A stretch of 51,077 bases of DNA from Shigella phage ESh4. The position numbers were made by a program, and so were the translations under genes. Below are positions 2,971-39,157 of this stretch, piece by piece. The DNA is taken from the sequence record ON528718, one strand, 5' to 3'. Position 1 is the first letter of the stretch. Every line of letters starts with the position of its first letter. The notes under the pieces are model-generated. The model was not told the origin of the DNA. It saw nothing but the letters and a program-made list of their open reading frames with translations, and did no database searches.

Positions 2971-2998
2971 GCTTATAATATGCCTCCGCTGTTTCAAT

Positions 2999-4237: not shown

Positions 4238-4651
4238 CATCATGTATTCTACCGCGATCATGAATTGCTTATATCCGTATGTTACGGCAGCGAATCCGCC
4301 AAGCTCACGCACACGACGCAAGAAGGCTTTTTGCTCCTTGCTTACTTGTGATGCCTTACCCTTGCCGGACTTATTGACGCGCTTCATCTCTATTGCCGCG
4401 AAAGGGTAACGGCCTTTTAATCCAATCAGGATGATAAAATCACTTACGCCCTTAACAAGCCCAGCTTGCTGATCCATCATTGCGGTGGCGATCCCCTTTT
4501 CCCCCTCATTTTTAGTATGCCATGCCAGCAATTCAGGATGAGCATAAGTTACCCATTGAAACGCGCCTATCTGATGCGATTCTTCTTTTAGTGTATCTGT
4601 CGGATCTCTTTCGTAAAACTCCAGATAATCGCCTTTATCAGTCATTGCCAT
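4232..4651 (-). CDS. VRR-NUC domain nuclease
   Basis: VRR-NUC-like core (SDFIILIGLKGRYPFAAIEMKRV...GKASQVSKEQKAFL); start moved to ATG at 4651 with AAGGA RBS to avoid 47-nt overlap with helicase. Confidence 0.65.
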   Translation of the reverse strand: MAMTDKGDYLEFYERDPTDTLKEESHQIGAFQWVTYAHPELLAWHTKNEGEKGIATAMMDQQAGLVKGVSDFIILIGLKGRYPFAAIEMKRVNKSGKGKASQVSKEQKAFLRRVRELGGFAAVTYGYKQFMIAVEYMMK

Positions 4652-8326: not shown

Positions 8327-10171
8327 ATGGCAATTTACAGAACCGGACAAGCGTCAATGGACGCTCAAGGTTATATCACTGGATACGACACGAAATGGCG
8401 AGAGCAACTAACGCTCATTCGCCCTGGTGCAACAATCTTTTTCATTGATGCACCATTTCAAGCGGCTGTGATCAGTGAAGTTATCAGCGATACACAAATA
8501 CGCGCTATCACAACTGGCGGCGCTGAAATTGGTAGAAGCAACTACATTATTTTGCTGCATGACTCAATCACTGTTGATGGCCTGGCGCAAGATGTTGCGG
8601 AAACTCTTCGCTACTACCAAAGCAAAGAAACTAAGATCGAGGAAGCTATTGAATTTTTCAAAAACTTTGACCTAAAACACTTGGAAGATCTGGCTAATCA
8701 GGTTAAAGGTGATGCAGAGAAAACGGCAGATGATCGTGCTGCTACTGAACAACTGAAAAACGACACTCAACAGATAAAGGATTCTGCTGTTGCTGAAACA
8801 AACCAGATTAAAGTAGACACTGACGCAATCAAGGAGCAAACGCAACAGATTAAAGATTCTGCGATAACGGAAGTTAATTCCGCACGCGATCAAGGTGTTT
8901 TAGCTGTAAACCAGACTAAAGATCAGGCTGTTTCAGAAATGAATCAGATAAAGGGTGATGTTTCGAATCTGAAAAACGAAGCTATTTCAGCAAGGGATTC
9001 CGCACAGCAATACATGAATGGCGCTCAGGCTGCAAATAGCGCCGCTGAAACTGCAAAAAACGGAGCTGTTACTGCGCGAAATGAGGCTGAAGAATTTGCT
9101 AAAGGCCTTAACGCTGAAAATCTGCTTAGAAAAGATGCGAACCTTTCAGATCTGTCTAACGTTGAAATTGCTCGTAAAAACTTAAAAGTACAGTCCGTTT
9201 ATAGTAAAGATCCAGCGACTAATTCAGATCCAGGGGACTATAATTCTTTCAGAAATCCAAATGAGTCGTATGAACTACGAATATCAAATAACGGAAATTG
9301 GTTAGTGGCTAATAATCAAGATGATTCAGTTTCTGCGCTATCTATTGATGCAGGTGGTACTGGAGCGTCGAATGCTTCTGACGCAAGGAAAAATATTGGA
9401 TTAAGCAATACAGATCATGTTTCATTTGAAGGAGTTAACGCAGCAAACGGTTTCTCTTGTACCGTTAGATCTAGCCCGTGGAGTGTTGGATATGATAACG
9501 CGTCGTTTTCAGGTGGATTGATATTCAATAACGATCATGGTTACGTGCCTATAATTTACGGTGGAACACAATCTACATCAGGTTACAGATTAAGGATGGG
9601 GATGGGCGTCCTTCCAAGCGGGAATACAAGCTGGCCTATGGGATTGATTCAAATCCTCGGAGACGACACATACTGGCGCGTGTTTGCGCTAGGTTACGAT
9701 GGGAATCTTCAAACCTGGACTTCAGAATCAGGCGGATGGACTGGTTCTTACGATTTTGCAAAAAATCCAACGTCTGACAGAGATCTGAAAAAAGACATCG
9801 TTTATACGGATGGAAAAGAAAGTTACGATCGCGTAATGCAATGGCTTCCGACAATGTTTAAGTATAAGCGAGATGATGTTCAGCGTTACGGACTGATTGC
9901 TCAAGACATGTTAAAAATCGATCCTCAATATGTGAAACTTGTACAAGGATCACCAGTATTTGAGGATGTGATCGGGGTTGATGACAATGGTGAAGAATAC
10001 ATTGATCGTCAGATTGAAACTGACAGAAATGATGATACATTGGCGCTTGATAGCAACGTTATGCTAACTGATATGGCTTGCGCTATGGTTTACATGGGAG
10101 GAATGATCGAAAAACAGCAAAAGGAGATAGACGAATTAAAGGCGGCTGTTGCTGCACTGCTCAATAAATAA
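8327..10171 (+). CDS. tail fibre protein with C-terminal intramolecular chaperone (peptidase S74-like) domain
   Basis: Repeated ...QQIKDSA... fibrous segments; C-terminal region (DLKKDIVYTDG...YGLIAQDM...LDSNVMLTDMACAMVYM...coiled coil) resembles the autoproteolytic chaperone domain of T5 pb1/endosialidase; ATG 8327 with GGGAGA RBS. Confidence 0.65.
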   Translation: MAIYRTGQASMDAQGYITGYDTKWREQLTLIRPGATIFFIDAPFQAAVISEVISDTQIRAITTGGAEIGRSNYIILLHDSITVDGLAQDVAETLRYYQSKETKIEEAIEFFKNFDLKHLEDLANQVKGDAEKTADDRAATEQLKNDTQQIKDSAVAETNQIKVDTDAIKEQTQQIKDSAITEVNSARDQGVLAVNQTKDQAVSEMNQIKGDVSNLKNEAISARDSAQQYMNGAQAANSAAETAKNGAVTARNEAEEFAKGLNAENLLRKDANLSDLSNVEIARKNLKVQSVYSKDPATNSDPGDYNSFRNPNESYELRISNNGNWLVANNQDDSVSALSIDAGGTGASNASDARKNIGLSNTDHVSFEGVNAANGFSCTVRSSPWSVGYDNASFSGGLIFNNDHGYVPIIYGGTQSTSGYRLRMGMGVLPSGNTSWPMGLIQILGDDTYWRVFALGYDGNLQTWTSESGGWTGSYDFAKNPTSDRDLKKDIVYTDGKESYDRVMQWLPTMFKYKRDDVQRYGLIAQDMLKIDPQYVKLVQGSPVFEDVIGVDDNGEEYIDRQIETDRNDDTLALDSNVMLTDMACAMVYMGGMIEKQQKEIDELKAAVAALLNK

Positions 10172-12174: not shown

Positions 12175-12186
12175 TGCCCCTTTTTT
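12161..12186. terminator. bidirectional intrinsic terminator
   Basis: AAAAA-GGGGC-GTAAT-GCCCC-TTTTTT between convergent genes. Confidence 0.7.
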
Positions 12187-12625
12187 ATGCGTTTAACCCT
12201 TCTCCGTTATCTCTATGCCATTGCTTATGGTGTGCTTGGCATAACCATCTAACTGATAAAGGTTTGCTGTAATCGTCATGGTGTGCAACTGATTTTTCAC
12301 TACCGCAAATTTCACACGGTGATTTTTCCACCTTCCCATCACGTAATGCGTTATTCAATGCATTGTGTGCCTTATACTTTCCTGGAAATTTATTTCTCCA
12401 TTGTTTTAAATATTCTTTGTCTTGCCGGTTTCCTCTTTTTTTATCGTAATCTCTTTTTTCATCTATGTTATCCCATCTGTTTTTTGTGACATCTTTTTTT
12501 GTACATTCTTTGCACTTATTTAAGTGTCCATCAGCCATCCGTTTATGCTTATAAAATTCTTTAAGGGGCTTTACAGCCCCGCATTTAAAGCATTTCTTAA
12601 AGCGCATAGATTCGATGTTTTCCAT
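12185..12625 (-). CDS. HNH homing endonuclease
   Basis: N-terminal Cys pairs (CFKCG...CKEC) and HNH core (CEICG...VAHHDDYSKPL...WLCQAHH). Confidence 0.75.
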   Translation of the reverse strand: MENIESMRFKKCFKCGAVKPLKEFYKHKRMADGHLNKCKECTKKDVTKNRWDNIDEKRDYDKKRGNRQDKEYLKQWRNKFPGKYKAHNALNNALRDGKVEKSPCEICGSEKSVAHHDDYSKPLSVRWLCQAHHKQWHRDNGEGLNA

Positions 12626-13094
12626 ATTGCAATCCTACACTAGCAAAAGGGATGTCGTCGTCAAAGTCCATAGGAGGCTGATTGCTTTGTCTTGGCTGTT
12701 GCGGTTGTTGCGGTTGATTCTGTTGTTGTGGCTGGCCCCATCCTCCTTGAGTTCGCTGCTGATATTGTTGCTGGCTTTCCCCACGCTGACTGAAGATAAG
12801 ATTTGCAAATCCTCCTGGCATTAAGCTTGAATACATCTTTCCGTTATATTCACGCGTCTCAATGCGCAGCGTGTCGCAAGATACAGAAATAACCTTGCCA
12901 ACCTGGAACGCCTCATCATACCAACCATTAAGTCCGTCAGTTTTCGCATTAAAAAAGAAACTGTAGTTTGTATATTGCCAGTTTCCATCTTTATCTTTGT
13001 ATCGCTCTGAAAGTTCAACCACATAAAGTGTGCTTCCGTTAGGCATTTGCTTTACTCGCGGCTCTTTTCTGATCTCACCAGTAATAATATGCAT
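12597..13094 (-). CDS. ssb: single-stranded DNA-binding protein (SSB) with 15-aa C-terminal extension
   Basis: OB-fold-like N-terminus, Gly/Gln/Pro-rich linker, canonical acidic tip DFDDDIPF, but ORF continues ASVGLQYGKHRIYAL into the HNH gene; AGGAGA RBS. Confidence 0.8.
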   Translation of the reverse strand: MHIITGEIRKEPRVKQMPNGSTLYVVELSERYKDKDGNWQYTNYSFFFNAKTDGLNGWYDEAFQVGKVISVSCDTLRIETREYNGKMYSSLMPGGFANLIFSQRGESQQQYQQRTQGGWGQPQQQNQPQQPQQPRQSNQPPMDFDDDIPFASVGLQYGKHRIYAL

Positions 13095-14200: not shown

Positions 14201-15262
14201 TTAAATAAGATATTGCTTAAACTGGCGGCGCACCCAATCAGGAGTATCAAGGCAAACCTCAGGCTCACCGTTTGAATACGAAGGCCAAACGTCATGTTGC
14301 TGGCACATGGCAAACTGGTTAATCACGCTCATGTACTGAATGCGCCCGATCTTCAACTGCTCGCTATTCATGCGGAAAGCCAACGGCAAATAAGGTTCTT
14401 TCTTCTCTTGCGCTAACAGTCGCACAACTATAGGTCGCTTTTCTTCTGGATACGCTTTTCTGAATAAATCACATTGCAACGCCATTTTCAAATAATAGCC
14501 GTGATTGTAAGCCAGGCGCATAAACTCAGCCGGATTCGCGCTCATTGTTGTTTTGTAGTCAGTAATCACAATCGCCTCTGGATAAATAATATCGCGGCAA
14601 ATCGGTTGACCTTTTTCATCGTAACCATCAATCAGAGTTGCTGTCACGTTCTTTGTTACGTCAACGTGATCGCATCGCACTTTGACTTTTACGCCGTTGA
14701 TTTCACCGAACAACGATAATTCACGTTGTGCTGTCTTGCTATTCATACATGCGTTATGTTCCGGTATTGATTCCAGAACCTGGCGCATTGCCACGCACGA
14801 ATCGTAATCTTTAGCCTCGATTAACTGAACCCCATCGGCCCTAGCCTGGCTTTCTGCGATCATGTCGATTAACCACATGACGTTAAGGTCTTCTCCGCAG
14901 TCAACCATCATTTTTATAAGTTCTGGGTAAGTCTTTCCGGTTGTACCTTTCAGGCCAAATGATTTCAGCTTTGCAGCAAGCGCCGTTTGGCTGGTTATCA
15001 GATCCTTAAAGTCTTCTGGCGCTGGCGCACGGCGATAGGTTTTTTCGAAAAGCTCCTTGCTTTCAAAGTTGGTATGCGACTGCGTACCAAAAACTAGCGC
15101 CTTGCTCTTATCGTCACGAGGCTTGAACTTCCACGCTGCCGGGCATGTGCTGTAAATCTCTGCCAGGCTTGAACCGCTAACATAATCAGCCGTCCACGCT
15201 TCTGGATCGTGATAAAGCTCGTTGCTCATTTCTTCGCTGGTGTACGCCATAAACTTATTCAT
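14201..15262 (-). CDS. PD-(D/E)xK family recombination exonuclease
   Basis: D...ITDYKT core typical of RecB/YqaJ-like nucleases; first gene of leftward recombination operon. Confidence 0.65.
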   Translation of the reverse strand: MNKFMAYTSEEMSNELYHDPEAWTADYVSGSSLAEIYSTCPAAWKFKPRDDKSKALVFGTQSHTNFESKELFEKTYRRAPAPEDFKDLITSQTALAAKLKSFGLKGTTGKTYPELIKMMVDCGEDLNVMWLIDMIAESQARADGVQLIEAKDYDSCVAMRQVLESIPEHNACMNSKTAQRELSLFGEINGVKVKVRCDHVDVTKNVTATLIDGYDEKGQPICRDIIYPEAIVITDYKTTMSANPAEFMRLAYNHGYYLKMALQCDLFRKAYPEEKRPIVVRLLAQEKKEPYLPLAFRMNSEQLKIGRIQYMSVINQFAMCQQHDVWPSYSNGEPEVCLDTPDWVRRQFKQYLI

Positions 15263-15291
15263 GATTTGCCCTCGTTTGTTGGTATGCCTGC

Positions 15292-15319
15292 ATTTTAGCT
15301 ATTTAATGCGTTTAGTCAA
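15292..15319 (-). promoter_or_regulatory. sigma70-like promoter (TTGACT-16-TAAAAT)
   Basis: Good -35/-10 pair 30 nt upstream of exonuclease start. Confidence 0.5.
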
Positions 15320-15429
15320 CAGTTATTTTGTTTTTTCTGTTCTAACAACGTTCCAGACGAATCGAATAACAAAATTTACATGTAAGTGATTGATAAATAT
15401 CTTTGTTGTCTTTTTGTTCCCTTGTTCCT

Positions 15430-15620
15430 CCGTTTGCGCCGGATATAGATATATAGACACACACAAACACTGACACATACACAACCACATAAAAATTACC
15501 AGGCACACAAAATCACACAAAACATAGATAACAAGAAAAAAACAAATATAAATATATATACTACTAACTTATTGATTTATATGTATGTATATATATTTAT
15601 CTGTATGTATAGCGCTCTAT
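15430..15620. repeat. low-complexity CA-rich then TA/TG-rich tract
   Basis: acacacaaacactgacacatacacaaccacata... followed by tatgtatgtatatatatttatctgtatgtata; non-coding divergent junction. Confidence 0.7.
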
Positions 15621-16981: not shown

Positions 16982-19900
16982 TTACCACACACCAACAACA
17001 ACTCGTCCACCATTGGGAAGGTTTACAGTGATGCCATTGTTATTTATAACAACGGTGTTATTTGTTCCATTAAAAGCAAAACTACCGTTTGAAGCATAAA
17101 GCGATCCTCTAACAGTAACATTGTTCAACTCGGCTGCTCCTGATTTGTTAATCATCCACCCCTGCACTCCAGATACGAAGTTGTTTGATTGAATAACGTT
17201 ACCGATCTTAGCATTTGTGATTGAACCGTCTTTCACCAACAGGCTGTTAATGAATACCTGGTTATTTTCCACCACAAAAGGCAACGTATACGATCCTCCA
17301 GTAGAACTTGTCATGATAGCGAACCTGTTCGCATCAAACAAAATCTGCGAAATAAGGCCGGATGAACCCTGTGAAAGCTGCATCACCATACCAGCGCTGT
17401 ACTTCTGACCGTTATATGTCAATCCCAATTTCATTGCGTACTGTGCGCCAACTCCATTAACGCCAGCCCATGAATCAAGTTTTTCAGTAAGTGCCGATTC
17501 AACATCTCCAAACTTCGCTGTTAATGCTGTATCAGCCGAAACGCGCGCCTCTGTTTCGCTTGCAATCGCCTCCTCAACCCGCGTTAATTGCCCCTGAATA
17601 TCATCATCAATCTGTGATTTCAATTCCTCAATGGCTGTTGCTCGCGTTTCCGATTCTGTTGCAATTGCCTGATCAAGCCTTGTTACTTCGCTAGTTATTT
17701 CCTCGTCAAATTCAGCCTTGAGTTGCGTCATTGCGGTAACGCGCGCCTCAGTTTCATCTGCGATCAACTGTATTGATTGCCTGAATTCGGCTTTGCGTTT
17801 TCCGTTTTCCTTCATCATAATCCTAACGTCTGCATCATTCGCCAATGCGTTTTGAATGATGCTTTGTGCCTGATCCTTGATTTTGTTTGCGCTATCAATG
17901 GCATTCTCTTTCAGATCCTTTCCTGCTTCAGTGTCAAAAATCTTATCAAGAATATCTCCTAAAACAGCCTCCACATCATCTGAAGCCATACCTCTAACAA
18001 AATTAGTCCAGCCGGAGACGTTGCCGATTCTGTCAACGCTGCGGATCCTATACCAGACAACATGACCAGCCGGAAGCGTACCGTGCCAGTATTCATATTG
18101 TGGATACGGGATCAGCGTTAGCAGGCTTGAGTTTTCAGCCGTTCCATCCGGCGACTGGTGAAGCTCAATGTATGCCGTGTCTCCGCTCCCTTCTGGCATA
18201 CCCCACTTAACACGAATGCCAAACACCTCATTGTCGGATGCTGTTAAGTTAACTGGCGCGCCTGGCTCTCCCACCTTACCAGTCAGTGAAGCTGTCACAA
18301 TTCTGGACCACGGAGAAGTAGAACCTGAAGCGGAAACAGATCTGACCCTTACTTGGTAGTTTCCTGAATAAATACCTTCAACCTCAATTTCTTTGTTTGC
18401 AGTCTGTGGTGTATTCAGCCAGTTGCCATCACCTTTTCGCCACTGCATTTCATACAGCGATGCGTAAGGTACTTTATCCCACGACACAACCATTGTTTCA
18501 ACGCTTGCACCCTGGACAATTCGCGAGTATGAGGATATTTGCACGTTTTCCGGTGCTGCCATTTTGTCAGGCTGGACAATTGACGTTGGCCTGTCGTCAA
18601 TGTTTACTCCGTAATCAATCTCGTCGTATTTGTTAGGGTCATATTCAACAGCCGTGATGGAGTATGTAAATTCATCATCACCATCACCTTTGCCGATACT
18701 CGTTACAACGTATTGCTGCAATGCAATATCAGTGCGGTCGATTGCAAAAACCGTGTCAGGTTTAACTTCAAATCCAAACCCAATATTTAGCTCAATGGTT
18801 TTTCCGTCACCGCTTACTTTTGAGATTGTGCGCTTAACTGGCTTTCCGTCCGGCTTGTTGATGATAATGAAATCACCTGGTCTAGCATCAATCTTAAACG
18901 GAACGAACACCTGCAAGCCGGAAACTTCCATCACGCGCCCTGATAGGTTTAACTTCAGGTTGCTGCTGTGAAAGTTGTCAGCAATAGCAATCACATCACC
19001 TATTGATGGGATCATGCCTTCCAGTCCAGTAGCAAAGTTTACCGTAGTGCTGCGCAAGTTGGTTTTTAGTATCCATCGACCTCGCCGATTAGCCTCACTC
19101 CTGCGTGTACATCCGATCGCTGTTATGCTTGTCGGATTGTATCCAAAGCGTAGTGCCGCCTCAGTATCAAACACGCCTTCTACGTCCTGCTGATACATGT
19201 TTTGTTCGTCGTCGAACGTCACATTGCACTGCGTGTACATGCTCTTTTCACTTGCTGTTGTGTACTGGAAATCACCATCAACAACATTGTCATTTGTGAA
19301 GATGTACGACGGATCGCGCGGCTTATCAATGACGATTGACAAGCTCTCCCCATTCCAAAAGCTCATGCCTCTGAATATTGAGCAAATATCACGAATAAGC
19401 TGATAAGCCTCAATCTGACTCTGGATAACAACATCACATAGATAGCGTGGCTCTGTGCCTCCTTTTCCGTCTGGAACTTTCTGATCGCAGTATTGCGCAG
19501 CTTCGTAAAGACTCCACTTATCAACCTGTACACCAAGCTCTCGCTGATCTAATCCGTATCGCTGGTTTGTGATAATGTCATAAAGTACCCACGCCGGATT
19601 GTTAGACCACGCTTTCTTGAACGTACCATTCCATGAGCCGTGATACTCTCGCATTACCGGATCGTAATTGCTCGGAACATTAATCAACTTCCATTTCTTC
19701 TTGATTGAAATGTTAGGGATCTGGTTAGGGAACAACTCGCTGTCAAATTCAACGTATACAAGGCCAGTCAGAGGGTAACGGAATTTTGCATCAATAACCT
19801 CAGCGTAACTTTGTAGCTTAATCAGATCAGTAACGCGAGAAGATGCGCTGTCTGCCGTTACCCTTCTAACCCTAAGCAATACGCGATCATTAAATGCCGG

Positions 19901-20437
19901 AAGGTCAATCCTTCGGCTTCTGTCGTAACCGGAACGCGTTTTACCTTCGATAGTGTCTCGCAATACTTCTTTGTAAGAGTCTCCGTCAACAGCCATATCA
20001 ACAGCATAAGTAACCTTAACGCCGACAAGATCGCCGTTATCCTCTTGCTTAATGCCTGTTGGCATTAGCATTTTGATTCTGATAGCAGATAATGTTTTGT
20101 TGGTTACGGAAATCACATAAGGATTTGACGTGGTAATATCACGCGCCAGCGTCACTTCGCTTGATGTGTCAGTAAATCCCTGGATGTAATCTTGAGTCTG
20201 TGTACCTGGGCGAAACTCTGCGCTCACACCTTGGTAGTTAACAGTTCCGTCGTCTGCAATTACCGGAACATCATCAAGATACAGATCGCGAAGTGTAAAA
20301 TCTGGATCGCACTCGCCATCGGAAACGGCAAGAAGGATTTTGATTTTGTTGATTGAGATCAGGTTATCTTCCATCTCTTTCGGAACATAAGGTTTTGATG
20401 ATCCTCCCTTACTTCCCGTTATCATATTTTCAGCCAT
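16982..20437 (-). CDS. tail tip/host specificity protein J (central tail fibre)
   Basis: 1151 aa; size, position after I/K/L/M and lambda gpJ-like organisation. Confidence 0.85.
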   Translation of the reverse strand: MAENMITGSKGGSSKPYVPKEMEDNLISINKIKILLAVSDGECDPDFTLRDLYLDDVPVIADDGTVNYQGVSAEFRPGTQTQDYIQGFTDTSSEVTLARDITTSNPYVISVTNKTLSAIRIKMLMPTGIKQEDNGDLVGVKVTYAVDMAVDGDSYKEVLRDTIEGKTRSGYDRSRRIDLPAFNDRVLLRVRRVTADSASSRVTDLIKLQSYAEVIDAKFRYPLTGLVYVEFDSELFPNQIPNISIKKKWKLINVPSNYDPVMREYHGSWNGTFKKAWSNNPAWVLYDIITNQRYGLDQRELGVQVDKWSLYEAAQYCDQKVPDGKGGTEPRYLCDVVIQSQIEAYQLIRDICSIFRGMSFWNGESLSIVIDKPRDPSYIFTNDNVVDGDFQYTTASEKSMYTQCNVTFDDEQNMYQQDVEGVFDTEAALRFGYNPTSITAIGCTRRSEANRRGRWILKTNLRSTTVNFATGLEGMIPSIGDVIAIADNFHSSNLKLNLSGRVMEVSGLQVFVPFKIDARPGDFIIINKPDGKPVKRTISKVSGDGKTIELNIGFGFEVKPDTVFAIDRTDIALQQYVVTSIGKGDGDDEFTYSITAVEYDPNKYDEIDYGVNIDDRPTSIVQPDKMAAPENVQISSYSRIVQGASVETMVVSWDKVPYASLYEMQWRKGDGNWLNTPQTANKEIEVEGIYSGNYQVRVRSVSASGSTSPWSRIVTASLTGKVGEPGAPVNLTASDNEVFGIRVKWGMPEGSGDTAYIELHQSPDGTAENSSLLTLIPYPQYEYWHGTLPAGHVVWYRIRSVDRIGNVSGWTNFVRGMASDDVEAVLGDILDKIFDTEAGKDLKENAIDSANKIKDQAQSIIQNALANDADVRIMMKENGKRKAEFRQSIQLIADETEARVTAMTQLKAEFDEEITSEVTRLDQAIATESETRATAIEELKSQIDDDIQGQLTRVEEAIASETEARVSADTALTAKFGDVESALTEKLDSWAGVNGVGAQYAMKLGLTYNGQKYSAGMVMQLSQGSSGLISQILFDANRFAIMTSSTGGSYTLPFVVENNQVFINSLLVKDGSITNAKIGNVIQSNNFVSGVQGWMINKSGAAELNNVTVRGSLYASNGSFAFNGTNNTVVINNNGITVNLPNGGRVVVGVW

Positions 20438-20482
20438 GCTTTTTCACCTTTTGTGCTATTTGATTTGTTGAATTATACGGGC

Positions 20483-20508
20483 AAAAAAAAAGCCGCGCAA
20501 CGCGCGAC
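20483..20508 (-). terminator. intrinsic terminator between I and J
   Basis: GC hairpin (GCCGCGCAACGCGCG) followed on minus strand by nine T. Confidence 0.6.
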
Positions 20509-20517
20509 TCTTTTATA

Positions 20518-21114
20518 TTAAGCCTTATCTTCTGCATAACTCCCAGCAGACCAGATAGCTCCGCCGACGGTCCTTTGACCGTATGGCAATGGTATTGGGT
20601 ATCCTGCCGCCGTTGTGTTAACTGCACCGCCAAAAGCGTAAGACGGCTTATTTTCTGCTGATTGGGATGATAACCGCGACCCGCCTTGCTGTGGTGAAAT
20701 CATCTGCATTACGCCACCCAGCACCATAGCGCCACCCATCATGAAAGCAGACGATGCAAAAGCGCCCATCAAAGCAAGTGAGGAGCCGCCAGTGAAAAAT
20801 GCAGTCGCCATAATAACCGCCCCAAGAACAACCTGAAACAACCCGCCAGACTTTGATCCTGTTGGGATGGGGATAATCCTCACTTCCTTTGCGCATTGCC
20901 ACGCTTTTTCATCGTGCTGCCCTACATTATTACCGTCAACAAATACAGCATAACGCATTCGCGATCCTACTTCGCTTTGCATGTAGTCCTTGAATCCTTC
21001 CACCTGCGAAGATAGCGCACGGATTGCTTCAGGGTATGAGTCAACAGCCAGCTTATGAAATACACCAAATCTTCGCCCTAAAGATCCAGATAATTTAATC
21101 GTTTTCAGTGTCAT
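20518..21114 (-). CDS. tail assembly protein I (lambda gpI-like)
   Basis: C-terminal Gly/Ala-rich hydrophobic region typical of gpI; start at ATG 21114 (track M is GTG at 21120). Confidence 0.6.
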   Translation of the reverse strand: MTLKTIKLSGSLGRRFGVFHKLAVDSYPEAIRALSSQVEGFKDYMQSEVGSRMRYAVFVDGNNVGQHDEKAWQCAKEVRIIPIPTGSKSGGLFQVVLGAVIMATAFFTGGSSLALMGAFASSAFMMGGAMVLGGVMQMISPQQGGSRLSSQSAENKPSYAFGGAVNTTAAGYPIPLPYGQRTVGGAIWSAGSYAEDKA

Positions 21115-21667
21115 AATCACCTCTACTTTTTCTTAACGCGACGATTGCAGGCGCTATGTACTTTAAAAATTCCTCGTGCGTGTAGTTATGCATTCGCGTT
21201 ACGTTGCAAAGCTGGCAGCAAGTGACGCAATTATCTTTAGTGTGTCCTTTTGTGTTATCTATCCTGTCGAAGCCGTTACATAGTGGATCTATGTATCCGC
21301 AGTATACGCAAGGCTTTACTAGTTCCTTAATGCAGTAATCAACATCCAAATCATTCTCAAGATTCTTTTTTTTATCTATTTTTTGGTAGCCTTTTAGTCT
21401 TAATATTTGCGGATTGTTGATTCTGTATCTTCTGCCGTATTCGCTTTTTTTAGCCTTTCCCTCTGGCGTACTGAGCAATCTTTTGTTGTATGCTCTCTGG
21501 CTTGCAAGATACTTGTCCTTGTTGTCCCCCTTCCATTTCTTTTGCCTGTCGTAGTCGCATGTTTTGCATTTATTCCTATGACCATCGGCGCAAGTCTTCG
21601 CCTTCGGAAACTCGCTTAATTTTTTAACCTCTCCGCAGACGTTGCATTTCTTCTCTACTGTCAACAT
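21095..21667 (-). CDS. HNH endonuclease inserted in tail module
   Basis: Cys pairs (CNVCG...CKTC) and HNH-type core (CVYCG...GFDRIDNTKGHTKDNCVTCCQLCN); overlaps both neighbours. Confidence 0.7.
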   Translation of the reverse strand: MLTVEKKCNVCGEVKKLSEFPKAKTCADGHRNKCKTCDYDRQKKWKGDNKDKYLASQRAYNKRLLSTPEGKAKKSEYGRRYRINNPQILRLKGYQKIDKKKNLENDLDVDYCIKELVKPCVYCGYIDPLCNGFDRIDNTKGHTKDNCVTCCQLCNVTRMHNYTHEEFLKYIAPAIVALRKSRGDYDTEND

Positions 21668-22379
21668 GTTTTAGATCCTTATGCCTAACAACTAGCGCGG
21701 TATGCTCTTGATACCAGCCAGAATATAAATCAATTCGAGACAGCTTTCCATAAGTATGGTGTAGCAGTTGGTTATCGCCCAAGTAAATCCCAGCATGATT
21801 GATAACATCGGATTGCAATATCATCATCACCATATCACCAGGTTTTGGCGGATCCCCTGTTTCAACAAAACCCTCTTTCAGATAATTTTCTTGGTAAAGA
21901 TTTTCACCGTGCTCAGGCTTCCACCATTCATATGGCTTCCTGAAATCATTCAGGATAACGCCATGTTGCTTGTGCCATGCCATAATAAGCCCCCAGCAAT
22001 CATAAGCACCAAGCGACCACGGGCGACAAATCAGGGGACGAGATTCAGGCTCTATGATTCTCATGTCACCTTCTGGCCATGACACAATAACCCATGAAAC
22101 ACCCATTTCATCACACATGCATGTGTCATGGGCGCTTGGAATTGTACTTGCCCCGTCTCCTGTGTGGCTATGCACAACAGCAATAAGCTCACCGCTTTCA
22201 CACGCCTCAACGTATTCAATTGCGTCCATCTCAAAATGATTTTCAGGATCATCATGCACGTTTGTTATTCGGTGATATTTTTGTACCCGCGACTTTTGAG
22301 TGATAACCCCGCACGCCTCGCGCGGGTATTCATCTTTTACGTGCTGCATTATTTCAAGTTTTATTTTTGCACTAATCAT
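21624..22379 (-). CDS. tail assembly protein K (JAB/MPN + NlpC/P60-like)
   Basis: JAMM-like HSHTGDGASTIPSAHD and Cys...His motifs (DCWGL...H.GIYLG); ATG 22379 with AAGGAGA RBS. Confidence 0.8.
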   Translation of the reverse strand: MISAKIKLEIMQHVKDEYPREACGVITQKSRVQKYHRITNVHDDPENHFEMDAIEYVEACESGELIAVVHSHTGDGASTIPSAHDTCMCDEMGVSWVIVSWPEGDMRIIEPESRPLICRPWSLGAYDCWGLIMAWHKQHGVILNDFRKPYEWWKPEHGENLYQENYLKEGFVETGDPPKPGDMVMMILQSDVINHAGIYLGDNQLLHHTYGKLSRIDLYSGWYQEHTALVVRHKDLKHVDSREEMQRLRRG

Positions 22380-23140
22380 CACTGATTTCTCCTTAACAGG
22401 CTTGCTACTGGCGCACCGCCAAAATCAAGCTGCTGATCTGCACCAAAACGAAGTTTGCACGCTGTTACAGTTCCGGCGCAAAAGTCTTGAGATGGATCGG
22501 TTACAGGATTGTTGTCTTTGTCAAACATTCGCGATCCATTGTATCCGCAACCCTTTCCGCTTCGATACCATCCACGCTGCGCCCAATAACAAACGCTTTG
22601 AGTTATTCGCGGAGGAATCATTATTCCATCCATATCATAAGGCGATGTCAGATCAAACTTTGCCATCATTCTATTGTAATGGCTTGGGCGCTCAATGTAA
22701 TAAACCAGCTTTCTTGAAGCGCCATCTTTAATGCTGCCATCTTTCCCCATTAATTCCGCTGGCGTGATCCAGATTGTAACCTTAGCTTGCATCATGCCGT
22801 TAAAGTTACGAATCATCGCACTCACCTGGCTATCAAGGTTTGATAGTATCAATTGTGGCTTATCAGCCTTTCCGTTGCTTGTGAAGTTGATTCCAGATAT
22901 TCCGAACGGGCGCGCGCCGTAAACCTCACCACGGAATGTAATCTCTTTTGGCGGAAGAACTCCAGTTTCTCGCGCCTGCAATAATTCTTCCGCAGTGTAT
23001 GAGATGTTCTCATTGTGTATGCGGTAAATGTTTGCGCCAAACTTTGTGCCGTCAATTTCAATTAGCGTGATAATATCGCCAGGGTAAAGGCTTTGCAGAC
23101 AATTTTCAAGATCCGCGCGACCTGTTGTTTCATTAGCCAT
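22379..23140 (-). CDS. minor tail protein L
   Basis: Position between M and K; ATG at 23140 with AAGGAGGTG RBS (track start 23173). Confidence 0.75.
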   Translation of the reverse strand: MANETTGRADLENCLQSLYPGDIITLIEIDGTKFGANIYRIHNENISYTAEELLQARETGVLPPKEITFRGEVYGARPFGISGINFTSNGKADKPQLILSNLDSQVSAMIRNFNGMMQAKVTIWITPAELMGKDGSIKDGASRKLVYYIERPSHYNRMMAKFDLTSPYDMDGIMIPPRITQSVCYWAQRGWYRSGKGCGYNGSRMFDKDNNPVTDPSQDFCAGTVTACKLRFGADQQLDFGGAPVASLLRRNQ

Positions 23141-23558: not shown

Positions 23559-26227
23559 CCCCGCTTAGACATAACAAATTCGTAAACTTCCCCACCCTGC
23601 GTACATGAACGCTTAATCATATCAGTGAAAATCATTTTTACGCCAGTCTCCAACCCTTTCGGATCGCTTCCGTTGTTAATATCAACGCTGATCCCGCCAA
23701 TATTAAGATTTGTTGCTCCAGATGAAACTCCGCCGCCAGTGTATGAAGTGCCGCCAACAACGCCTCCATTTGCATAACCGCGCATCATTTTGTAAAGATT
23801 TCCAACTCCGATCCGCTTCGTTGCCTCCTTCGTCATGACAAACTCGCCTTTATGGACAACACCTGCTGGCTCATACTTCCCACCATCGCCAGTGTATCCA
23901 CCAGTTGCAAATCCAACATTTTTAAGAAGGCTTCCAATCGTCCAAGTGTCACCGCCAGTCGCACCAGATATGGCATTAAAGATAACCATCTTTGTTATCA
24001 TCTGGATAATCATTTGGATGATTGACGTTGCGAAGCTCTTAAAGTTTGCCTTGCCTGTTGCAAGGAATGTAGCCATTTGGTTGGTTAGACCGTTGAGCGC
24101 CTCGCTTGCAATATCTTGCACGTTGCCGTACATATCCATTGCATCTTGTCCGTAAACCTCCCATGCGTTTTTTGCTCCTGCAATCCAGTTATTTCTTAGC
24201 TGATCCTCAGTGGCGTAATACTCCTTCAGCTTTGCTTCCATCTGCTGATAAATTTCATCGTCGATACTACCGCCGCCAGCAACATAATCAGTTCGCAACT
24301 TCTTCAACTCAAGCTCTCGCTGGATTTGCAGATCTGTAGCTCCAGACTGTCGCAAGTTCATAGCGTCAATAGCATCCGATGTTTGCTGAATGAACTTTAG
24401 CCCTTCCTGATATTGCTTGTTCTTTCTTTGTTGCAAAACAATCTGATCGCCTATCTCGGCCTTTTCTTTTGCCATAGCAAGAACTGTTTTTTGCTCGTTT
24501 AGTAACGCCTGTTCCGCTTTTGTTAGCTTACGTTTGCTTTGCGCTTCCTCTAGGATCTGGATCTGCTTTTCAATACTCCACAAAGATTGCCTCTGGCGTG
24601 AAATAACATCATTTACAGTTCGGTGCTCTTTCAGAGTTTCAAGTTGCGCCTTGAGAACATATAGCTCCTTATCAAGCTGCTCTGTTGGTGCTTTTACAAC
24701 TCCACCAACTTTTTCCTTTTGCTGCTGCGCCTTCTTCGCCTCTTCAAGCTCTTTTCGCCTGAACTCCACGTTCTCAGCCGCTCGTTTTTTCAAATCTTCG
24801 TCTGCTGTCCTTGCTACGTTCTTCTGATCCTCTATGGCTTTGTTTAAAGCCTCTTGCGCCGCTCGAACTCTGTTTAAGGAAAGGTTTTCTCTGTCGATGC
24901 GTGCTGCTCGTTCCGCCATATCCCTATTCGCATCTTTTACGATCTTTCCTATATCCTCATAGGTGTTCTTCGCAAATTGCAACATAGGATTTACATAACC
25001 AAGCTCTTTCCCCAACAGCCCGCCGGACGGTGAAGCATAATCACGTTTTGCTTTTAAGACCGCATACCATGAATCGCCAAGCTCAAGAACTTTGTTTTTG
25101 TGATCAGCAATTTCATTGTTAAGACTTACAAAACTTGATGCGTTTTTGTATTCGTTTACTTTTGCCTTTGCTTCGTCATAGGTAAATCCAACATCGACGA
25201 GTTTTTGTATAGCCTCGCTTGCTCCATCCTTAGTGCTTATATAAGCCTTTGCGATATTGTCGGCGCTCTCTCCTGTCTTGTCAGATAGCGCCTGAATTCC
25301 AGTTGCGATCCGCTCTGCAAACTCACCTGAAAGACCTGTTGCCTCCTGAACGGTTTTTGTGATCTCCTTCAGTTGTGCATTTGTTTTGTATGCATTATAT
25401 GCAGCATAACCAAGAGCACCAGTCAGCGCCGTCATTCCTACACTTAAAGGCGTGACAAATGTCATTAGCGCTTTAAACGTATTAGCAACACCGCCGAATG
25501 AGTCCTTGATTTGCCCCCCTTGCTGTATTGCGATCATCCATACTGGCATACCTGAAGCGAGAGAAGTAACAACGTCAGTGATTTGCATTGGCAATTGCGC
25601 CATTGCTTGCTTGTACTGCCCCATAGAAACGCCAAGTTTTGAGGCTTGTTTTTCCTGCTCCTTCATTTTTGCAATAAATGGCGCTGCCTCAGCACTAACT
25701 CCAAGTTGTGCGGCTCTCATTTCTACAAGCTCTGATTTTGTTTTTTCCGCTGCGTCAGCTTGCGCCTGCAATGCCGCAATAAACTTTCTTGCCTCAGCCT
25801 CTGCCCTTGCCTTGTTTTTTGCTTCCTCAAGCGCCGCGCGACCTTCTTCAGTTAGCGCCTTTTTAGTTGCGATCAGTTTGTTTTGCTGCGTCTCAAGAAT
25901 TGATCCTAACTCAAAGAATGTATCATCCGGCACAATTCCTTTTTTCCAAAGCGCATCAAGCTGTGTTGCTGCCTGGCGCAACTTATCCATTTTGCTTGCT
26001 GTCGGATCTATTGCCGACTGAATTGCTTTAAATTCCTGTTTCTGCTTCGCCAATTCCTCAGCCAATTGTTTGGCTCTTTGCCTTGCAACAACCTCTGAAT
26101 CAACAAAGCTCTCAACGCTTCCCTTTGCGTCGTCGTTTGCCTTTTTGAATTGCTGCAAAGATTTTACAGCATTGTTGAGTTGAGATACATCAACCCCAAG
26201 CGTCAATCCTGCGTATTGTTCTGACAT
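23555..26227 (-). CDS. tail tape measure protein
   Basis: 890 aa, long Ala/Lys/Glu/Gln coiled-coil region, C-terminal Gly-rich segment; GGAGGA RBS. Confidence 0.85.
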   Translation of the reverse strand: MSEQYAGLTLGVDVSQLNNAVKSLQQFKKANDDAKGSVESFVDSEVVARQRAKQLAEELAKQKQEFKAIQSAIDPTASKMDKLRQAATQLDALWKKGIVPDDTFFELGSILETQQNKLIATKKALTEEGRAALEEAKNKARAEAEARKFIAALQAQADAAEKTKSELVEMRAAQLGVSAEAAPFIAKMKEQEKQASKLGVSMGQYKQAMAQLPMQITDVVTSLASGMPVWMIAIQQGGQIKDSFGGVANTFKALMTFVTPLSVGMTALTGALGYAAYNAYKTNAQLKEITKTVQEATGLSGEFAERIATGIQALSDKTGESADNIAKAYISTKDGASEAIQKLVDVGFTYDEAKAKVNEYKNASSFVSLNNEIADHKNKVLELGDSWYAVLKAKRDYASPSGGLLGKELGYVNPMLQFAKNTYEDIGKIVKDANRDMAERAARIDRENLSLNRVRAAQEALNKAIEDQKNVARTADEDLKKRAAENVEFRRKELEEAKKAQQQKEKVGGVVKAPTEQLDKELYVLKAQLETLKEHRTVNDVISRQRQSLWSIEKQIQILEEAQSKRKLTKAEQALLNEQKTVLAMAKEKAEIGDQIVLQQRKNKQYQEGLKFIQQTSDAIDAMNLRQSGATDLQIQRELELKKLRTDYVAGGGSIDDEIYQQMEAKLKEYYATEDQLRNNWIAGAKNAWEVYGQDAMDMYGNVQDIASEALNGLTNQMATFLATGKANFKSFATSIIQMIIQMITKMVIFNAISGATGGDTWTIGSLLKNVGFATGGYTGDGGKYEPAGVVHKGEFVMTKEATKRIGVGNLYKMMRGYANGGVVGGTSYTGGGVSSGATNLNIGGISVDINNGSDPKGLETGVKMIFTDMIKRSCTQGGEVYEFVMSKRG

Positions 26228-30705: not shown

Positions 30706-31140
30706 TTATGGGTCAATGCTTACCCCGACAATATATGAATCATGATCAACCTTTACATGTTCGCCAGTAAATATCCAACCAATCAGCAAGTCGCCTTCAC
30801 TGTATGCCACATCTCCATCTTGCGTTACAAATACTTTATCTCCATATTCTGGCGCTTCGCTCTCAGAAGTTAAGCACCAAACATTACCACGACTAACCAC
30901 ATTAACTGGATCGCCCTCCTCATATATGCACGAGTCCGGCGGCCTTACTGCCACTCCAATAACCAGATCACCATTAACACTGACTATTTTATATCCGCTT
31001 GATATATATGATAACCTTACAATCTTACCTGGTGAAATAAACTCGTCTCCACATACAAAAGAACCATTAATCACCATTATTGAAGAATCAACCATGCATC
31101 CTGGCGACTCAGCGCCAACAATGACTGAATAATCACTCAT
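30706..31140 (-). CDS. capsid-associated protein, paralog A (decoration-like)
   Basis: Shares motifs with 31186-31698 (GVAV..., E.G...NV...G.VW.L....AP.[FY]G); same module. Confidence 0.5.
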   Translation of the reverse strand: MSDYSVIVGAESPGCMVDSSIMVINGSFVCGDEFISPGKIVRLSYISSGYKIVSVNGDLVIGVAVRPPDSCIYEEGDPVNVVSRGNVWCLTSESEAPEYGDKVFVTQDGDVAYSEGDLLIGWIFTGEHVKVDHDSYIVGVSIDP

Positions 31141-31154
31141 GAGAACTCCAAATA

Positions 31155-31178
31155 TAAAAAAGGCGCTCAGTGAGCGCC
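31155..31178 (-). terminator. intrinsic terminator
   Basis: GGCGCTC-ACT-GAGCGCC followed on minus strand by TTTTTTATATTTGGAG. Confidence 0.65.
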
Positions 31179-31185
31179 ATATTTA

Positions 31186-31698
31186 TTAACCTGCTGAAAC
31201 TGCCGGAACTTTTTGCACCTGAACCTCTACCAGCTTCAAGTCTTGAAACTTGGTGAAATCACCAGTCGCGATCCAGTTTGTTTCGATAGTGCCAGACGTG
31301 GTATCAACCTGACCATCATCAGACAGTTTGATTGTAGTGCCGAACGCTGGCGCGGAAGCGTCTTTAGCCAGCATCCAAACACGCCCTTCAGTCATTACGT
31401 TGATTCCGCCGCCAGATTCATAAATCATTCGACCGTCAGACGAAGTTGTCTGAAAGTGAGATCGAATTGCAACGCCGTAAGCCTTGCCGCTTGCCGCCAT
31501 CGGCTTAATTAGCTTATTGCCCATAGCGTCAACTCCGCCATGCTGGACCGCCACACCAACAAAAACAGACTGATTCTGATTGCCTGCCGCATTCTCAAGA
31601 ACACAAGCGCCATCAATATTATAAGCTGAAGTGTCAGAAACCTGACCAGGTAACGCACGAGACATTACAGCAAAATAACTTGCTCCAATTGTAGCCAT
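31186..31698 (-). CDS. capsid-associated protein, paralog B (decoration-like)
   Basis: Paralogous to 30706-31140; followed by terminator. Confidence 0.5.
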   Translation of the reverse strand: MATIGASYFAVMSRALPGQVSDTSAYNIDGACVLENAAGNQNQSVFVGVAVQHGGVDAMGNKLIKPMAASGKAYGVAIRSHFQTTSSDGRMIYESGGGINVMTEGRVWMLAKDASAPAFGTTIKLSDDGQVDTTSGTIETNWIATGDFTKFQDLKLVEVQVQKVPAVSAG

Positions 31699-34939: not shown

Positions 34940-36508
34940 CTATTTGTTCCGCAAACCTGCCAATTTTTTCATTCTTCCTACCGGATCATCTGCCATGTTC
35001 ATTTCAATGTTAACAGCATCAATGATGTTATCAACAATATCATCATGAGGATGGCTATCATCGAATGTAAACGCCGCAACTTCAGCGAGAATCTCAGCCA
35101 GCATAGGATGAGATTCTGGAAGTGCCACGCGTCCGGCGCGCATTACTGGTGCTGCGTCCATTGCGCGAGTAACCTTGTCTTTATCTCGCTGAACTGGATT
35201 GATCTTGATCATGATTTTTTTCGCTGCGCTCTGAATCAAGCCAGTGCCAGATGACTTGTCTTCAACATGAATCCTTCGCAACGTTCCGCATTCTTTATTG
35301 CGCTTCCAGCACTGATTAACGAACGCAACAAAATTCGTCTCAAGGTCCGGTGCTTCCCATTTTCCGCGAACGCCATCAATGAAGTAGACACGATCTTTAT
35401 ACATCCCCCAATAACAGATCACGGAATAGTCGTTAAGCTCACCTGTTTTCTGCGCGGTATCAACCGTGATAAATGTATATTCAAAGCGATCCGGTTTTGG
35501 TAGTGTGCATTTCTCGCTGCTGCCGTAATACTGAAACCACTCTGTTTTAAACACGTTGCCGCCAAGCGCAACAGGCTGTTGCTGATACTGACTAGCGAAC
35601 GTGTACGGATCAGCATTTCGAAGTGCAAGTAATTCCTCCGCGCTTTCCTTAGCAGGCCAGAATGAATAATGAGCAACTCCATCAATCATCACTGGCTTAC
35701 TGGACAAAACATCGCGATCAAACTCAGGCTTTAACCAATCAGGAAGCGTTTCGCGATATTCCTTAGTAACTAGCGCCGGAATACTGACCACCTTAAACTG
35801 GATGCCGCCCATGCCGCCGTTTGTCATGAACCATGTTGAATCATTGACGTGTAGCCGTTGCTGGACCATTACGATTGGCGTTGTGTCCTTCATTCTACGC
35901 GATCGCACCGTGTTCTTTAGGCGCATGTGTCCGGCTTCGCGCTTCACCTTAGAAAGCATATCATCCGGTTTGTCTGGATCATCAAGAACCAGCATACCAG
36001 TAAATCCATCGTCCATGTAGCCGCCACGCAGACCAGTAACCTGACCACCGATAGAGCGCGAGTTAACTTGCAATTTAACCTTGCCACCATCGGTTACAAT
36101 TAAATCCTTTGCGCTCGCCTTCGCCAGTTTTCCAGGCCATAGCTCCTGCCATTCTGGAGAACCAATAATCTCTTTGATGCGGTTGCTATTCTGCTGGACA
36201 AGGCCATCACTAAACGAAAGATTAAGATTTCGCACCTTCTTACTTTTCAATGACGCATAAGGTGACATGTGGATCGAGAATATCTCTGTTTTACCGCTGC
36301 CTGGCGTTATGTTGAAAATTACGTTTTGTGACTCGCCTTTGATGATTTTTTCAACTTCGCTGCATAGGTAGCTGAAATGCCAGTTTCCTAAGAATTTCTG
36401 ACCTTGCAATAATTGAAACCAAATGCGGATCATCTTTTCGAATGAATATTCGCTCATTTCCTTAACGGCGCGTTTCTGCGCCGCTGTTAAGTCTTCCCAA
36501 ATCAGCAT
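34940..36508 (-). CDS. terL: terminase large subunit
   Basis: Walker A-like ITPGSGKT, Walker B-like LVLDDPD, C-terminal nuclease-like acidic residues; 522 aa. Confidence 0.85.
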   Translation of the reverse strand: MLIWEDLTAAQKRAVKEMSEYSFEKMIRIWFQLLQGQKFLGNWHFSYLCSEVEKIIKGESQNVIFNITPGSGKTEIFSIHMSPYASLKSKKVRNLNLSFSDGLVQQNSNRIKEIIGSPEWQELWPGKLAKASAKDLIVTDGGKVKLQVNSRSIGGQVTGLRGGYMDDGFTGMLVLDDPDKPDDMLSKVKREAGHMRLKNTVRSRRMKDTTPIVMVQQRLHVNDSTWFMTNGGMGGIQFKVVSIPALVTKEYRETLPDWLKPEFDRDVLSSKPVMIDGVAHYSFWPAKESAEELLALRNADPYTFASQYQQQPVALGGNVFKTEWFQYYGSSEKCTLPKPDRFEYTFITVDTAQKTGELNDYSVICYWGMYKDRVYFIDGVRGKWEAPDLETNFVAFVNQCWKRNKECGTLRRIHVEDKSSGTGLIQSAAKKIMIKINPVQRDKDKVTRAMDAAPVMRAGRVALPESHPMLAEILAEVAAFTFDDSHPHDDIVDNIIDAVNIEMNMADDPVGRMKKLAGLRNK

Positions 36509-37029
36509 TATATCTTCTCCAGAATGTCAATTACCGCCTCTTTGACTTCCTCCGCCGTTACAGCGTCAACGCTTGCGCTTGTATTATTCTCAATGGTAAC
36601 GGTAGCTGGCTTTTCAATGCCGATCTCTTTACCAATGAATCCGGCGTTAACAATATTGTTTGCAGCAAGCTGGAATTTTTGCTCGTAAACAACGCCGTCG
36701 ATAAAGTCCATAACCTCGCTGAATCCTGGCTCACGTCGCCATTTTTCAAGTACGGAAGCAGAAAGGCCAGCGAATAATCGGAATCCGTTTAAGGTGAACA
36801 CGCGCGGCTTGTAAATCTTGCTTTCGTATACGTCACCCTGAAAGGATGCCGTTTCCGCAGCCTGTATATGATTTTCCTCGGCCCACGTAAAGTAACGAAC
36901 AGCAAGATCAAATACCTGTTCCGGCGTGTACTTGTGCGCCTTTGTCATTTTTGCAATATCGCCATATTGCTTATTATATAGTTTTTTAAAATTGCAAGCC
37001 TTTACTGCTGGCTCAACGTTTTTAGCCAT
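36508..37029 (-). CDS. terminase small subunit (candidate)
   Basis: Gene immediately upstream of TerL; ATG at 37029 with AAGGAGGG RBS (track ORF extends to 37200). Confidence 0.55.
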   Translation of the reverse strand: MAKNVEPAVKACNFKKLYNKQYGDIAKMTKAHKYTPEQVFDLAVRYFTWAEENHIQAAETASFQGDVYESKIYKPRVFTLNGFRLFAGLSASVLEKWRREPGFSEVMDFIDGVVYEQKFQLAANNIVNAGFIGKEIGIEKPATVTIENNTSASVDAVTAEEVKEAVIDILEKI

Positions 37030-38611: not shown

Positions 38612-38916
38612 TTATATTTCTCCGCTACATGCTTTGCAACTGATTGTGCGTAATTGGCAAATGCCGACTCCACGCTTTCATTCTTTCGCTTCCAGTTGTG
38701 AACTTTTAAAGCCGTGTATCCATTCTCAGCAAGCCATTTTGCAGTTTCTGCCGCGTCAGTCGGACGTGGTGAGAATTTTTGCTCAAGCTGAGTAAAAAGC
38801 TCTCTTGCAACCTCATGATCAATCATCATTTCATCGGTTGATCCGCAAAGCGCACGAGAACCTACAGCATGCAGGAGTTTCTTTGCTTGTTCTTCTGAAA
38901 GGTTAATCGTGATCAT
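38608..38916 (-). CDS. hypothetical protein (102 aa)
   Basis: ATG 38916 with AGAGGA RBS, overlapping stop of upstream ORF. Confidence 0.45.
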   Translation of the reverse strand: MITINLSEEQAKKLLHAVGSRALCGSTDEMMIDHEVARELFTQLEQKFSPRPTDAAETAKWLAENGYTALKVHNWKRKNESVESAFANYAQSVAKHVAEKYK

Positions 38917-39125: not shown

Positions 39126-39157
39126 TTTGATTTCCTCTGTTTCGCTTCAATGAGGAC

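Follow-up and report, generated by a model that had tools for sequence, protein, structure and literature searches.

What is a gene for a nuclease-like protein doing between two tail assembly genes that overlap each other directly in related phages? The question is raised by the genome of Shigella phage ESh4, a Hanrivervirus of 51,077 bp (ON528718; PMC9686686), which was analysed at its full length and is referred to here as the window. An earlier note, made from the sequence alone, described a 190-residue open reading frame (ORF) between genes K and I and took it for a homing endonuclease inserted into the tail operon. The ORF is present exactly there, on the minus strand, and the identical protein is found at NCBI as a 'hypothetical protein' of Shigella phage ESh4 (URY10784.1). 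Three features make up the locus:

21095..21667, minus strand: free-standing homing-endonuclease-like ORF, ATG to TAA, 190 residues, recognised by its homologues, its match to PHROG 1035 and its ratio of non-synonymous to synonymous substitutions (dN/dS).
21624..22379, minus strand: tail tip assembly gene K, with Prok-JAB and NlpC/P60 domains (Pfam); PHROG 30.
20518..21114, minus strand: tail assembly gene I, with a Lambda_tail_I domain (Pfam); PHROG 32.

The stop codon of K at 21624 gives a 44-nt overlap with the 5' end of the endonuclease ORF, and the ATG of I at 21114 gives a second overlap of 20 nt, or of 26 nt with the GTG at 21120 as its start. We consider it probable (about 0.8) that 21095-21667 is a free-standing PacI-like homing endonuclease gene that invaded the 20-nt overlap of K and I, and we infer that its product cleaves DNA and promotes homing. 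This reading is based on presence or absence of the gene at an exact site, occupation of the same junction in divergent lineages, a decay remnant, conserved nuclease residues, a PacI-like fold, and a protein family that clusters by insertion site.

A megablast search of the flanks (20400-22500) against 50,697 phage records returned 127 matching records of Hanrivervirus type. The insert is absent from all 127, and K and I overlap directly. Every listed record aligns in two pieces, amounting to about 1548 bp against 2101 bp in the window, and coverage of the query stays below 80% in every record. The DNA of the ORF itself matches one other record only, TH27, which belongs to another genus (Nouzillyvirus) and has the gene at the same junction (71% identity over the 3' half of the ORF). 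TH27 is the sole carrier among some 13 records of Nouzillyvirus that extend across the K/I junction. Precise presence/absence polymorphism, which is a mark of homing endonuclease genes, is therefore seen at this site, in 0 of 127 records of the one type and about 1 of 13 of the other. The earlier note had called for a comparison with related phages, reasoning that its view of the gene as an insertion would fail if all of them were carriers; all 127 matching records prove to be empty, and its claim of an insertion between K and I is borne out.

Six empty alleles (BEK7, A123, A134, egaa, damhaus and pSf-1) were aligned or read at the junction, which resolves the insertion as follows:

21115..21667, minus strand: insertion of 553 bp (3n+1) relative to the six insertion-free K/I alleles, with boundaries ambiguous by a 3-nt ATG repeat.

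All six have AAGGATCTRAAATATG before and ACTTTRAAGGTRATTAAATTATCTGG after the insertion point. Read in gene orientation, the empty allele runs ...CATAAGGATCTGAAAT ATG ACTTTGAAGGTAATTAAATTATCTGG..., the junction of BEK7, pSf-1 or egaa type reading ...AAGGATCTGAAATATGACTTTGAAGGTAATTAAATTATCTGGATC..., and the window runs ...CATAAGGATCTAAAAC ATG TTGACAG..., through the ORF, to ...AGTAGAGGTGATT ATG ACACTGAAAACGATTAAATTATCTGG.... The overlap of K and I in the empty alleles is 20 nt long and scarless, and K ends there in YDFKGN. The insertion thus changes the signals of both neighbours, at three places:

21676..21680, minus strand: AAGGA, a Shine-Dalgarno-like motif, once that of gene I and now in front of the endonuclease ATG, unchanged in sequence and spacing between empty and occupied alleles.
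21117..21123, minus strand: GAGGTGA, a new putative ribosome-binding site for I, lying in the codons for the conserved endonuclease C-terminus ...RKSRG(D/E).
21624..21668, minus strand: altered C-terminus of K, in which the ancestral ...HKDLK-YDFKGN becomes ...HKDLK-HVDSREEMQRLRRG, read in another frame of the endonuclease 5' end.

The ancestral start codon position of I is now taken by the endonuclease ATG, behind the ancestral AAGGA, which would serve as its ribosome-binding site. Because the insert is 3n+1 long, the endonuclease ORF enters the ancestral frame of K and terminates on the ancestral K stop, so that its C-terminus is YDTEND as against YDFKGN for ancestral K. K itself gains a new tail of 14 residues. 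At the far end of the ORF, the residues RKSRGD are encoded by codons that contain GAGGTGA, three bases ahead of the regenerated ATG of I (GAGGTGA-N3-ATG). The same motif is found at the 3' end of the insert in TH27 and in the assemblies L003, L004 and L015, and in TH27 the endonuclease ATG likewise substitutes for that of I, with GAGGTGA ahead of the restored I start. Promoter-like and terminator-like matches in the insert region are no commoner than in shuffled sequence, and expression within the late tail operon is thus the natural assumption. ESh4 is a plaque-forming isolate, seen by transmission electron microscopy to be a siphovirus with a long non-contractile tail (PMC9686686), and the insertion is therefore tolerated.

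The K/I junction is occupied in several further phages. Closest are two Logan assemblies, L003 and L052, whose proteins are 95-96% identical to that of the window; more distant homologues at the same junction are found in L004 (65%), L058 (about 60%), TH27 (49%) and L015, from IMG/VR (47%). Clustered at 90% identity, the window protein has a group of 12 members on contigs of up to about 51 kb, and the TH27-type cluster has 31 members. In the metagenomic phages L005-L008, the identical K/I site holds an in-frame remnant of 96 residues (P0010), with the same overlaps with K and I. It originates from a 282-bp in-frame deletion, which removes the linker together with one half of the zinc site of the nuclease, and which lies between two direct repeats that can be located in the window:

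21545..21551, minus strand: CGACAGG direct repeat, copy 1, bounding the 282-bp deletion of P0010.
21263..21269, minus strand: CGACAGG direct repeat, copy 2, the other bound of that deletion.

This remnant is the decay stage expected in the life cycle of a homing endonuclease, in which invasion is followed by degeneration.

These distributions also bear on whether the gene came in at all. It might be ancestral to the tail modules of the Drexlerviridae and have been lost many times, through deletion and ordinary recombination and with no nuclease-driven invasion. The homologues at this junction do diverge roughly in step with the genes of their hosts, K being only 66-78% identical, and synonymous sites among them are saturated. 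However, independent deletions would not recreate the 20-nt overlap precisely, and all six empty alleles have it, seamless and without a scar, in addition to the 127 records that lack the insert. Carriers are a small minority in both genera, and a near-identical gene (95-98% at the amino acid level) is found in differing backbones, such as L052, which has an extra copy at the M/L junction, and L005, which has an extra HNH_3 gene. We therefore regard repeated loss of an ancestral gene as very unlikely, and invasion of an intact K/I overlap as the better account.

The product of the gene is clearly a real protein. Its homologues reach E 1e-121, dN/dS against close alleles is 0.13-0.18, which indicates purifying selection, and the AlphaFold2 model has a predicted local distance difference test score (pLDDT) of 95.5; this is no chance ORF. 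In distant pairs of homologues the proportion of synonymous differences (pS) exceeds 0.8, with a non-synonymous proportion (pN) of 0.23-0.30. Searches with the ORF found no Pfam family (at E up to 10) and no NCBIfam family, including no HNH model; PHROG 1035 ('endonuclease VII') matches at E 3e-24. A profile search collected 753 relatives, none of them with a Pfam domain, and when 1.84 billion representatives were searched exhaustively, 592 matched at E <= 1e-30 and 14,410 at E <= 1e-10. Against PDB sequences, a single-sequence search gave noise only, with PacI at E 0.8. An alignment profile is required, and this matches Gme HNH at E 8e-6 and PacI at E 2e-5. Two modules can be recognised:

21557..21646, minus strand: N-terminal Cys4 zinc ribbon (C8, C11, C34, C37), which aligns to the N-terminal CxxC...CxxC of PacI and is shared with the product of a second gene at 12185-12625, described below.
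21194..21310, minus strand: PacI-like beta-beta-alpha-metal nuclease core, with C120, C123, C151 and C154 for a structural zinc and D134 and N155 as predicted metal ligands.

The zinc ribbon is probably a DNA-binding module. Conservation was assessed in a family alignment of 55 sequences, in which C8, C11, C34, C37, C120, Y122, C123, D134, R135, D137, N138, G141, H142, N146, C151, C154, N155 and R158 are invariant or nearly so; the predicted catalytic and zinc-ligand columns are conserved in at least 53 of the 55, most of them in all. The core also contains R135, H142, N146 and R158. R135 occupies the place of the canonical catalytic His at the end of strand beta-1, where every member has Arg, and H142, in the omega loop, aligns with the Tyr of PacI, in a column of 54 His and 1 Tyr. 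D134 and N155, both invariant, align with the Asp and Asn of PacI at sequence positions 92 and 113. In the profile alignment to PacI the motif DRSDSFEGYSPQNARLACFICN stands against DRIDNTKGHTKDNCVTCCQLCN, that is, DRID...G-H142 against DRSD...G-Y.

The model places strands at 132-135 and 147-150 and a helix at 152-158, which gives the beta-beta-alpha-metal fold of the His-Me/HNH superfamily. Membership of the PacI-like group is indicated by D-R for D-H together with the omega-loop residue, by two Cys4 zinc sites flanking the active site, and by the overall match of the fold. In PacI the catalytic His is absent and a Tyr of the omega loop serves as general base (PMC5714182, PMC4081073, PMC3384342), and its metal ligands are one Asp and one Asn (PMC4081073). 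Two reviews locate this Tyr in the omega loop, and its identity is taken from them and from the aligned loop of PacI, which has a single Tyr. By analogy, H142 would act as the general base in place of the PacI Tyr. The HNH motif that the earlier note had seen is thus right at the level of the superfamily, by way of a PacI-like variant, but the canonical first His is Arg135 and the HNH models of Pfam and NCBIfam find no match; 'PacI-like His-Me finger' is the correct description.

PacI (PDB 3ldy/3m7k; His-Me finger group 20, Jablonska et al. 2017) is the closest known system, at only about 21% identity, and there are clear differences. In the window protein an insert of four helices, about 65 residues long (35-100), separates the zinc ribbon from the nuclease core, and the omega-loop residue of its family is His (54/55) where PacI has Tyr. 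The window gene is a phage-borne, site-specific insertion, whereas PacI is a bacterial restriction enzyme cutting TTAAT/TAA. The PacI group is characterised by homodimers that cut a short palindrome (TTAATTAA).

The missing His suggests another possibility, that the gene is a dead or decaying passenger, a nuclease that lost its catalytic His (DH to DR) and is kept for the C-terminus of K and for the ribosome-binding site and start context of I. R135 at the canonical position and the lack of a Pfam HNH match would agree with this, and the 96-residue remnant persists in several phages with exactly the same overlaps; for the PacI-like HNH of Skunavirus, the accessible part of the report mentions no exclusion effect (PMC12724721). 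On the other hand, the arrangement DR...H/Y...N...N equals that of active PacI (PMC4081073), the predicted catalytic and zinc ligands are kept in at least 53 of the 55 members, purifying selection extends along the whole ORF and not merely its overlapping ends, and the family is very large, with 592 clusters at E <= 1e-30. We consider a dead passenger unlikely.

A third possibility is that the gene serves the phage, as a terminase HNH partner in packaging, as a resolvase, or as a non-mobile weapon against hosts or competing phages. PHROG and RefSeq label it 'endonuclease VII', a paralogue lies between TerL and portal in phage A123, and homing endonucleases do cause marker exclusion of competitors. 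The label derives from PHROG 1035 and RefSeq naming only, and we reject it: there is no match to Pfam Endonuclease_7 (PF02945) even at E 10, nor to an HNH model, T4 endonuclease VII is not among the structural matches listed for the AlphaFold2 model, and the structure matches PacI. The earlier note had also suggested a role in DNA packaging. This finds no support and is rejected on the position and the sporadic distribution of the gene, which is in the tail operon, far from terminase, and absent from 127 related phages, that is, from nearly all relatives. The paralogue between TerL and portal has no counterpart in the BEK7 annotation or in the alignment of the window with BEK7. HNH packaging factors of the HK97 gp74 and GVE2 type are adjacent to terminase, conserved in all members of their phage group, and keep the canonical His, unlike the PacI-like gene found sporadically between K and I. 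A phage-serving role is exceedingly improbable.

The family extends to other junctions, at which the related genes are 33-51% identical to the K/I members. They are found at M/L (ESCO41 gp59, L016, L052/L053 and L054/L055), at L/K (L056/L057) and between TerL and portal (A123). ESCO41 gp59 ('endonuclease VII', NC_047820), like PHROG 1035, belongs to the same protein family as the window gene, with 37% identity over the full length and a place in the same tail module of a Drexlerviridae phage; it differs in its M/L junction and in belonging to a separate site-specific clade, and its label is unsupported by Pfam or fold. One Hanrivervirus-like metagenomic contig, L052, has two PacI-like members in a single tail operon, at M/L and K/I (2501-3040 and 4491-5063). 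Neighbour joining puts the M/L members into one clade and separates the K/I members, as a further group, from the only L/K member. The tree thus clusters largely by insertion site, which fits the view that these are target-specific lineages.

It is quite possible, and we propose it tentatively, that the members of this very large uncurated PacI-type family, recognised by Arg for the catalytic His and an omega-loop His instead of Tyr and comprising at least 592 clusters at 50% identity, are active homing endonucleases. They would have radiated along the Drexlerviridae tail-tip operon in clades specific for M/L, L/K and K/I, integrating where essential genes overlap and capturing the start and stop codons of these genes. 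If so, they would form a natural series on the retargeting of a PacI-like scaffold to new long sites, and a source of rare-cutting enzymes.

On the reading that we favour, the gene would be co-translated with the late M-L-K-I-J operon, and its protein would bind DNA through the N-terminal Cys4 zinc ribbon and the helical linker. Cutting would be carried out by a one-metal beta-beta-alpha site, with D134 and N155 as ligands, H142 as the base and R135 next to the scissile phosphate. In a mixed infection, the intact K/I junction of endonuclease-free relatives would be cleaved, and recombinational repair from the carrier genome would copy the gene together with adjacent markers; a window ORF is annotated in related records as an Erf-like annealing protein or recombinase. 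The carrier would be immune since the insertion splits the target site. After they have spread, copies would decay, as in the 96-residue remnant, and the targets of sister lineages would be the nearby M/L and L/K junctions and that between TerL and portal.

If markers are copied with the gene, traces might be sought in the flanking DNA, which is indeed mosaic:

21099..21214, minus strand: window-specific mosaic patch of 116 nt, covering the 3' end of the endonuclease ORF and codons 2-5 of I.

Within the patch, codons 2-5 of I change from ACT TTG AAG GTA to ACA CTG AAA ACG (V5T). Over a 131-nt query that spans it (21090-21220), identity to the L003 allele falls to 83%, from about 99% in the remaining ORF. 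The patch itself has some 20 substitutions, which make roughly 10 synonymous and 6 non-synonymous codon changes, including codons 2-5 of I. The same patch stands out against the L052 allele (about 83%, against roughly 99% elsewhere). It is probably a short recombination tract from an unsampled allele; an exact IMG/VR search for the recoded I start was empty, and a metagenome scan gave distant relatives only. We considered whether the recoded codons immunise the target site in all carriers, and reject this, as L003, L052 and L005-L008 keep the sequence of the empty allele.

Further upstream, the last 200 bp of K (21700-21899) fall into two Hanrivervirus allele classes about 25% apart, against a background divergence of 2-5%: egaa, damhaus and pSf-1 in one, and the window, BEK7, A123 and A134 in the other. 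This block adjoins the insertion site and could represent a tract converted long ago. The sequence AAGGAATTAA upstream of the gene is common to L004 and TH27, unlike the empty Nouzillyvirus alleles, which may mean that the endonuclease gene carries a few bases of upstream sequence along. No clean gradient of co-conversion is visible in the flanks of the occupied alleles, and the evidence on this point appears suggestive but not clean.

Near the insertion point, 11 nt downstream, the empty K/I site has GTAATTAA, which agrees with the PacI site in 7 of 8 bases (read in L001 and L009-L013). The patch of the window turns it into ACGATTAA (21100-21110), and the carriers L003 and L052 keep it, for which reason the resemblance may be a coincidence.

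Several points weigh against the homing endonuclease reading. The occupied alleles share just a T to C change at -2 before the ATG and a G to A change at -8, the latter present also in the empty egaa allele, so that co-conversion of the flanks is not clear-cut. The carrier L003 has its downstream half-site unchanged, and the proposed basis of carrier self-immunity is for that reason tentative. The canonical general-base His is missing, so that activity rests on analogy with PacI. The insert is unremarkable in composition, with a GC content of 40.9% against 43.9%. The sporadic pattern could come from ordinary recombination of carriers with non-carriers, without cleavage. In Skunavirus, plaquing was reduced by two other constructs only, both I-HmuI-like, and the accessible part of that report gives no effect for the PacI-like one (PMC12724721). 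Everything beyond the encoding of a PacI-like fold is a matter of interpretation.

Among known elements the gene most resembles the free-standing homing endonuclease genes of phages, such as T4 seg/mob and the I-HmuI-like and PacI-like HNH genes of Skunavirus (PMC12724721). Like them, it is an ORF-sized insertion between conserved essential genes, with variable presence in near-identical genomes, truncated remnants, and clusters tied to a site. They lie in intergenic spacers, whereas the window ORF is placed within an overlap of two genes and exchanges start and stop codons with them; the phage family also differs, being Drexlerviridae here. PacI-like free-standing HNH genes of variable presence have already been described in Skunavirus (PMC12724721), and coliphages are well known to be infested by homing endonuclease genes (PMC8594841). 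For phage biology there is nothing conceptually new here. Three things are distinctive: start and stop codons are captured where two genes overlap, the PacI site occurs in a Tyr-to-His variant, and the family has spread along a single operon in a site-specific manner.

The locus provides a base-resolved example of a selfish nuclease gene inside the translationally coupled overlap of two essential structural genes, neither of which is disabled: the insertion borrows the start signal of the downstream gene and the stop of the upstream one, and would supply a replacement ribosome-binding site. A gene called 'hypothetical protein' or 'endonuclease VII' can now be assigned to the PacI structural class, which is absent from Pfam and NCBIfam and widespread in phages. 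Such insertions and conversion tracts confuse the phylogenies and annotation of therapeutic-candidate phages such as ESh4, and new rare-cutting or nicking enzymes might be found among the site-specific clades.

The earlier note had further pointed to a second endonuclease gene beside ssb and to active traffic of selfish elements. Both observations stand. The second gene is sporadic, and its start overlaps the 3' end of ORF 12597-13094 (ssb in related records):

12185..12625, minus strand: second sporadic endonuclease gene, 146 residues, overlapping the 3' end of ssb; PHROG 2340 'endonuclease', E 1e-37.

Its product is 34% identical to the 190-residue protein over residues 6-124, with the zinc-ribbon module in common, and has a canonical-looking C-terminus (C..C/HH...HH..H). 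The gene is found in two of 122 related records, morffagbaw and vB_EcoP_06; A16a and A15b appear to carry a different insert at this site. BEK7 (L044) has four annotated homing endonuclease genes (8970-9479, 30916-31386, 36215-36601 and 38842-39360), none with a counterpart in the window alignment, the absence of the third being less certain because it coincides with the ends of the window. Each phage has its own set of homing endonuclease genes, and such traffic is real and typical of the group.

An extra HNH_3 gene (PF13392) lies on the opposite strand between I and J in L005 (4885-5346) and L007 (2044-2505). In the window the interval between I and J is just an 80-bp spacer with a GC-rich hairpin (20478-20510). 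The stretches of lowest GC in the genome are at 15050-15550 and 45000-45200 (33-36% against a mean of 43.9%), and the ORFs at 44318-45038 do not look endonuclease-like by eye. The distal portion of J and part of the tape-measure gene (17000-17900 and 24000-25000) are 30-55% divergent from A123, A134 and L005, which are otherwise 95% identical, and are not divergent from egaa or pSf-1; this pattern indicates module exchange in genes of host range and tail length. Finally, the records named 'Campylobacter phage A123/A134...' (L009, L013 and L014; MG0656xx, UNVERIFIED, host C. jejuni) are about 94% identical to Hanrivervirus coliphages, and their assignment to a C. jejuni host looks doubtful.

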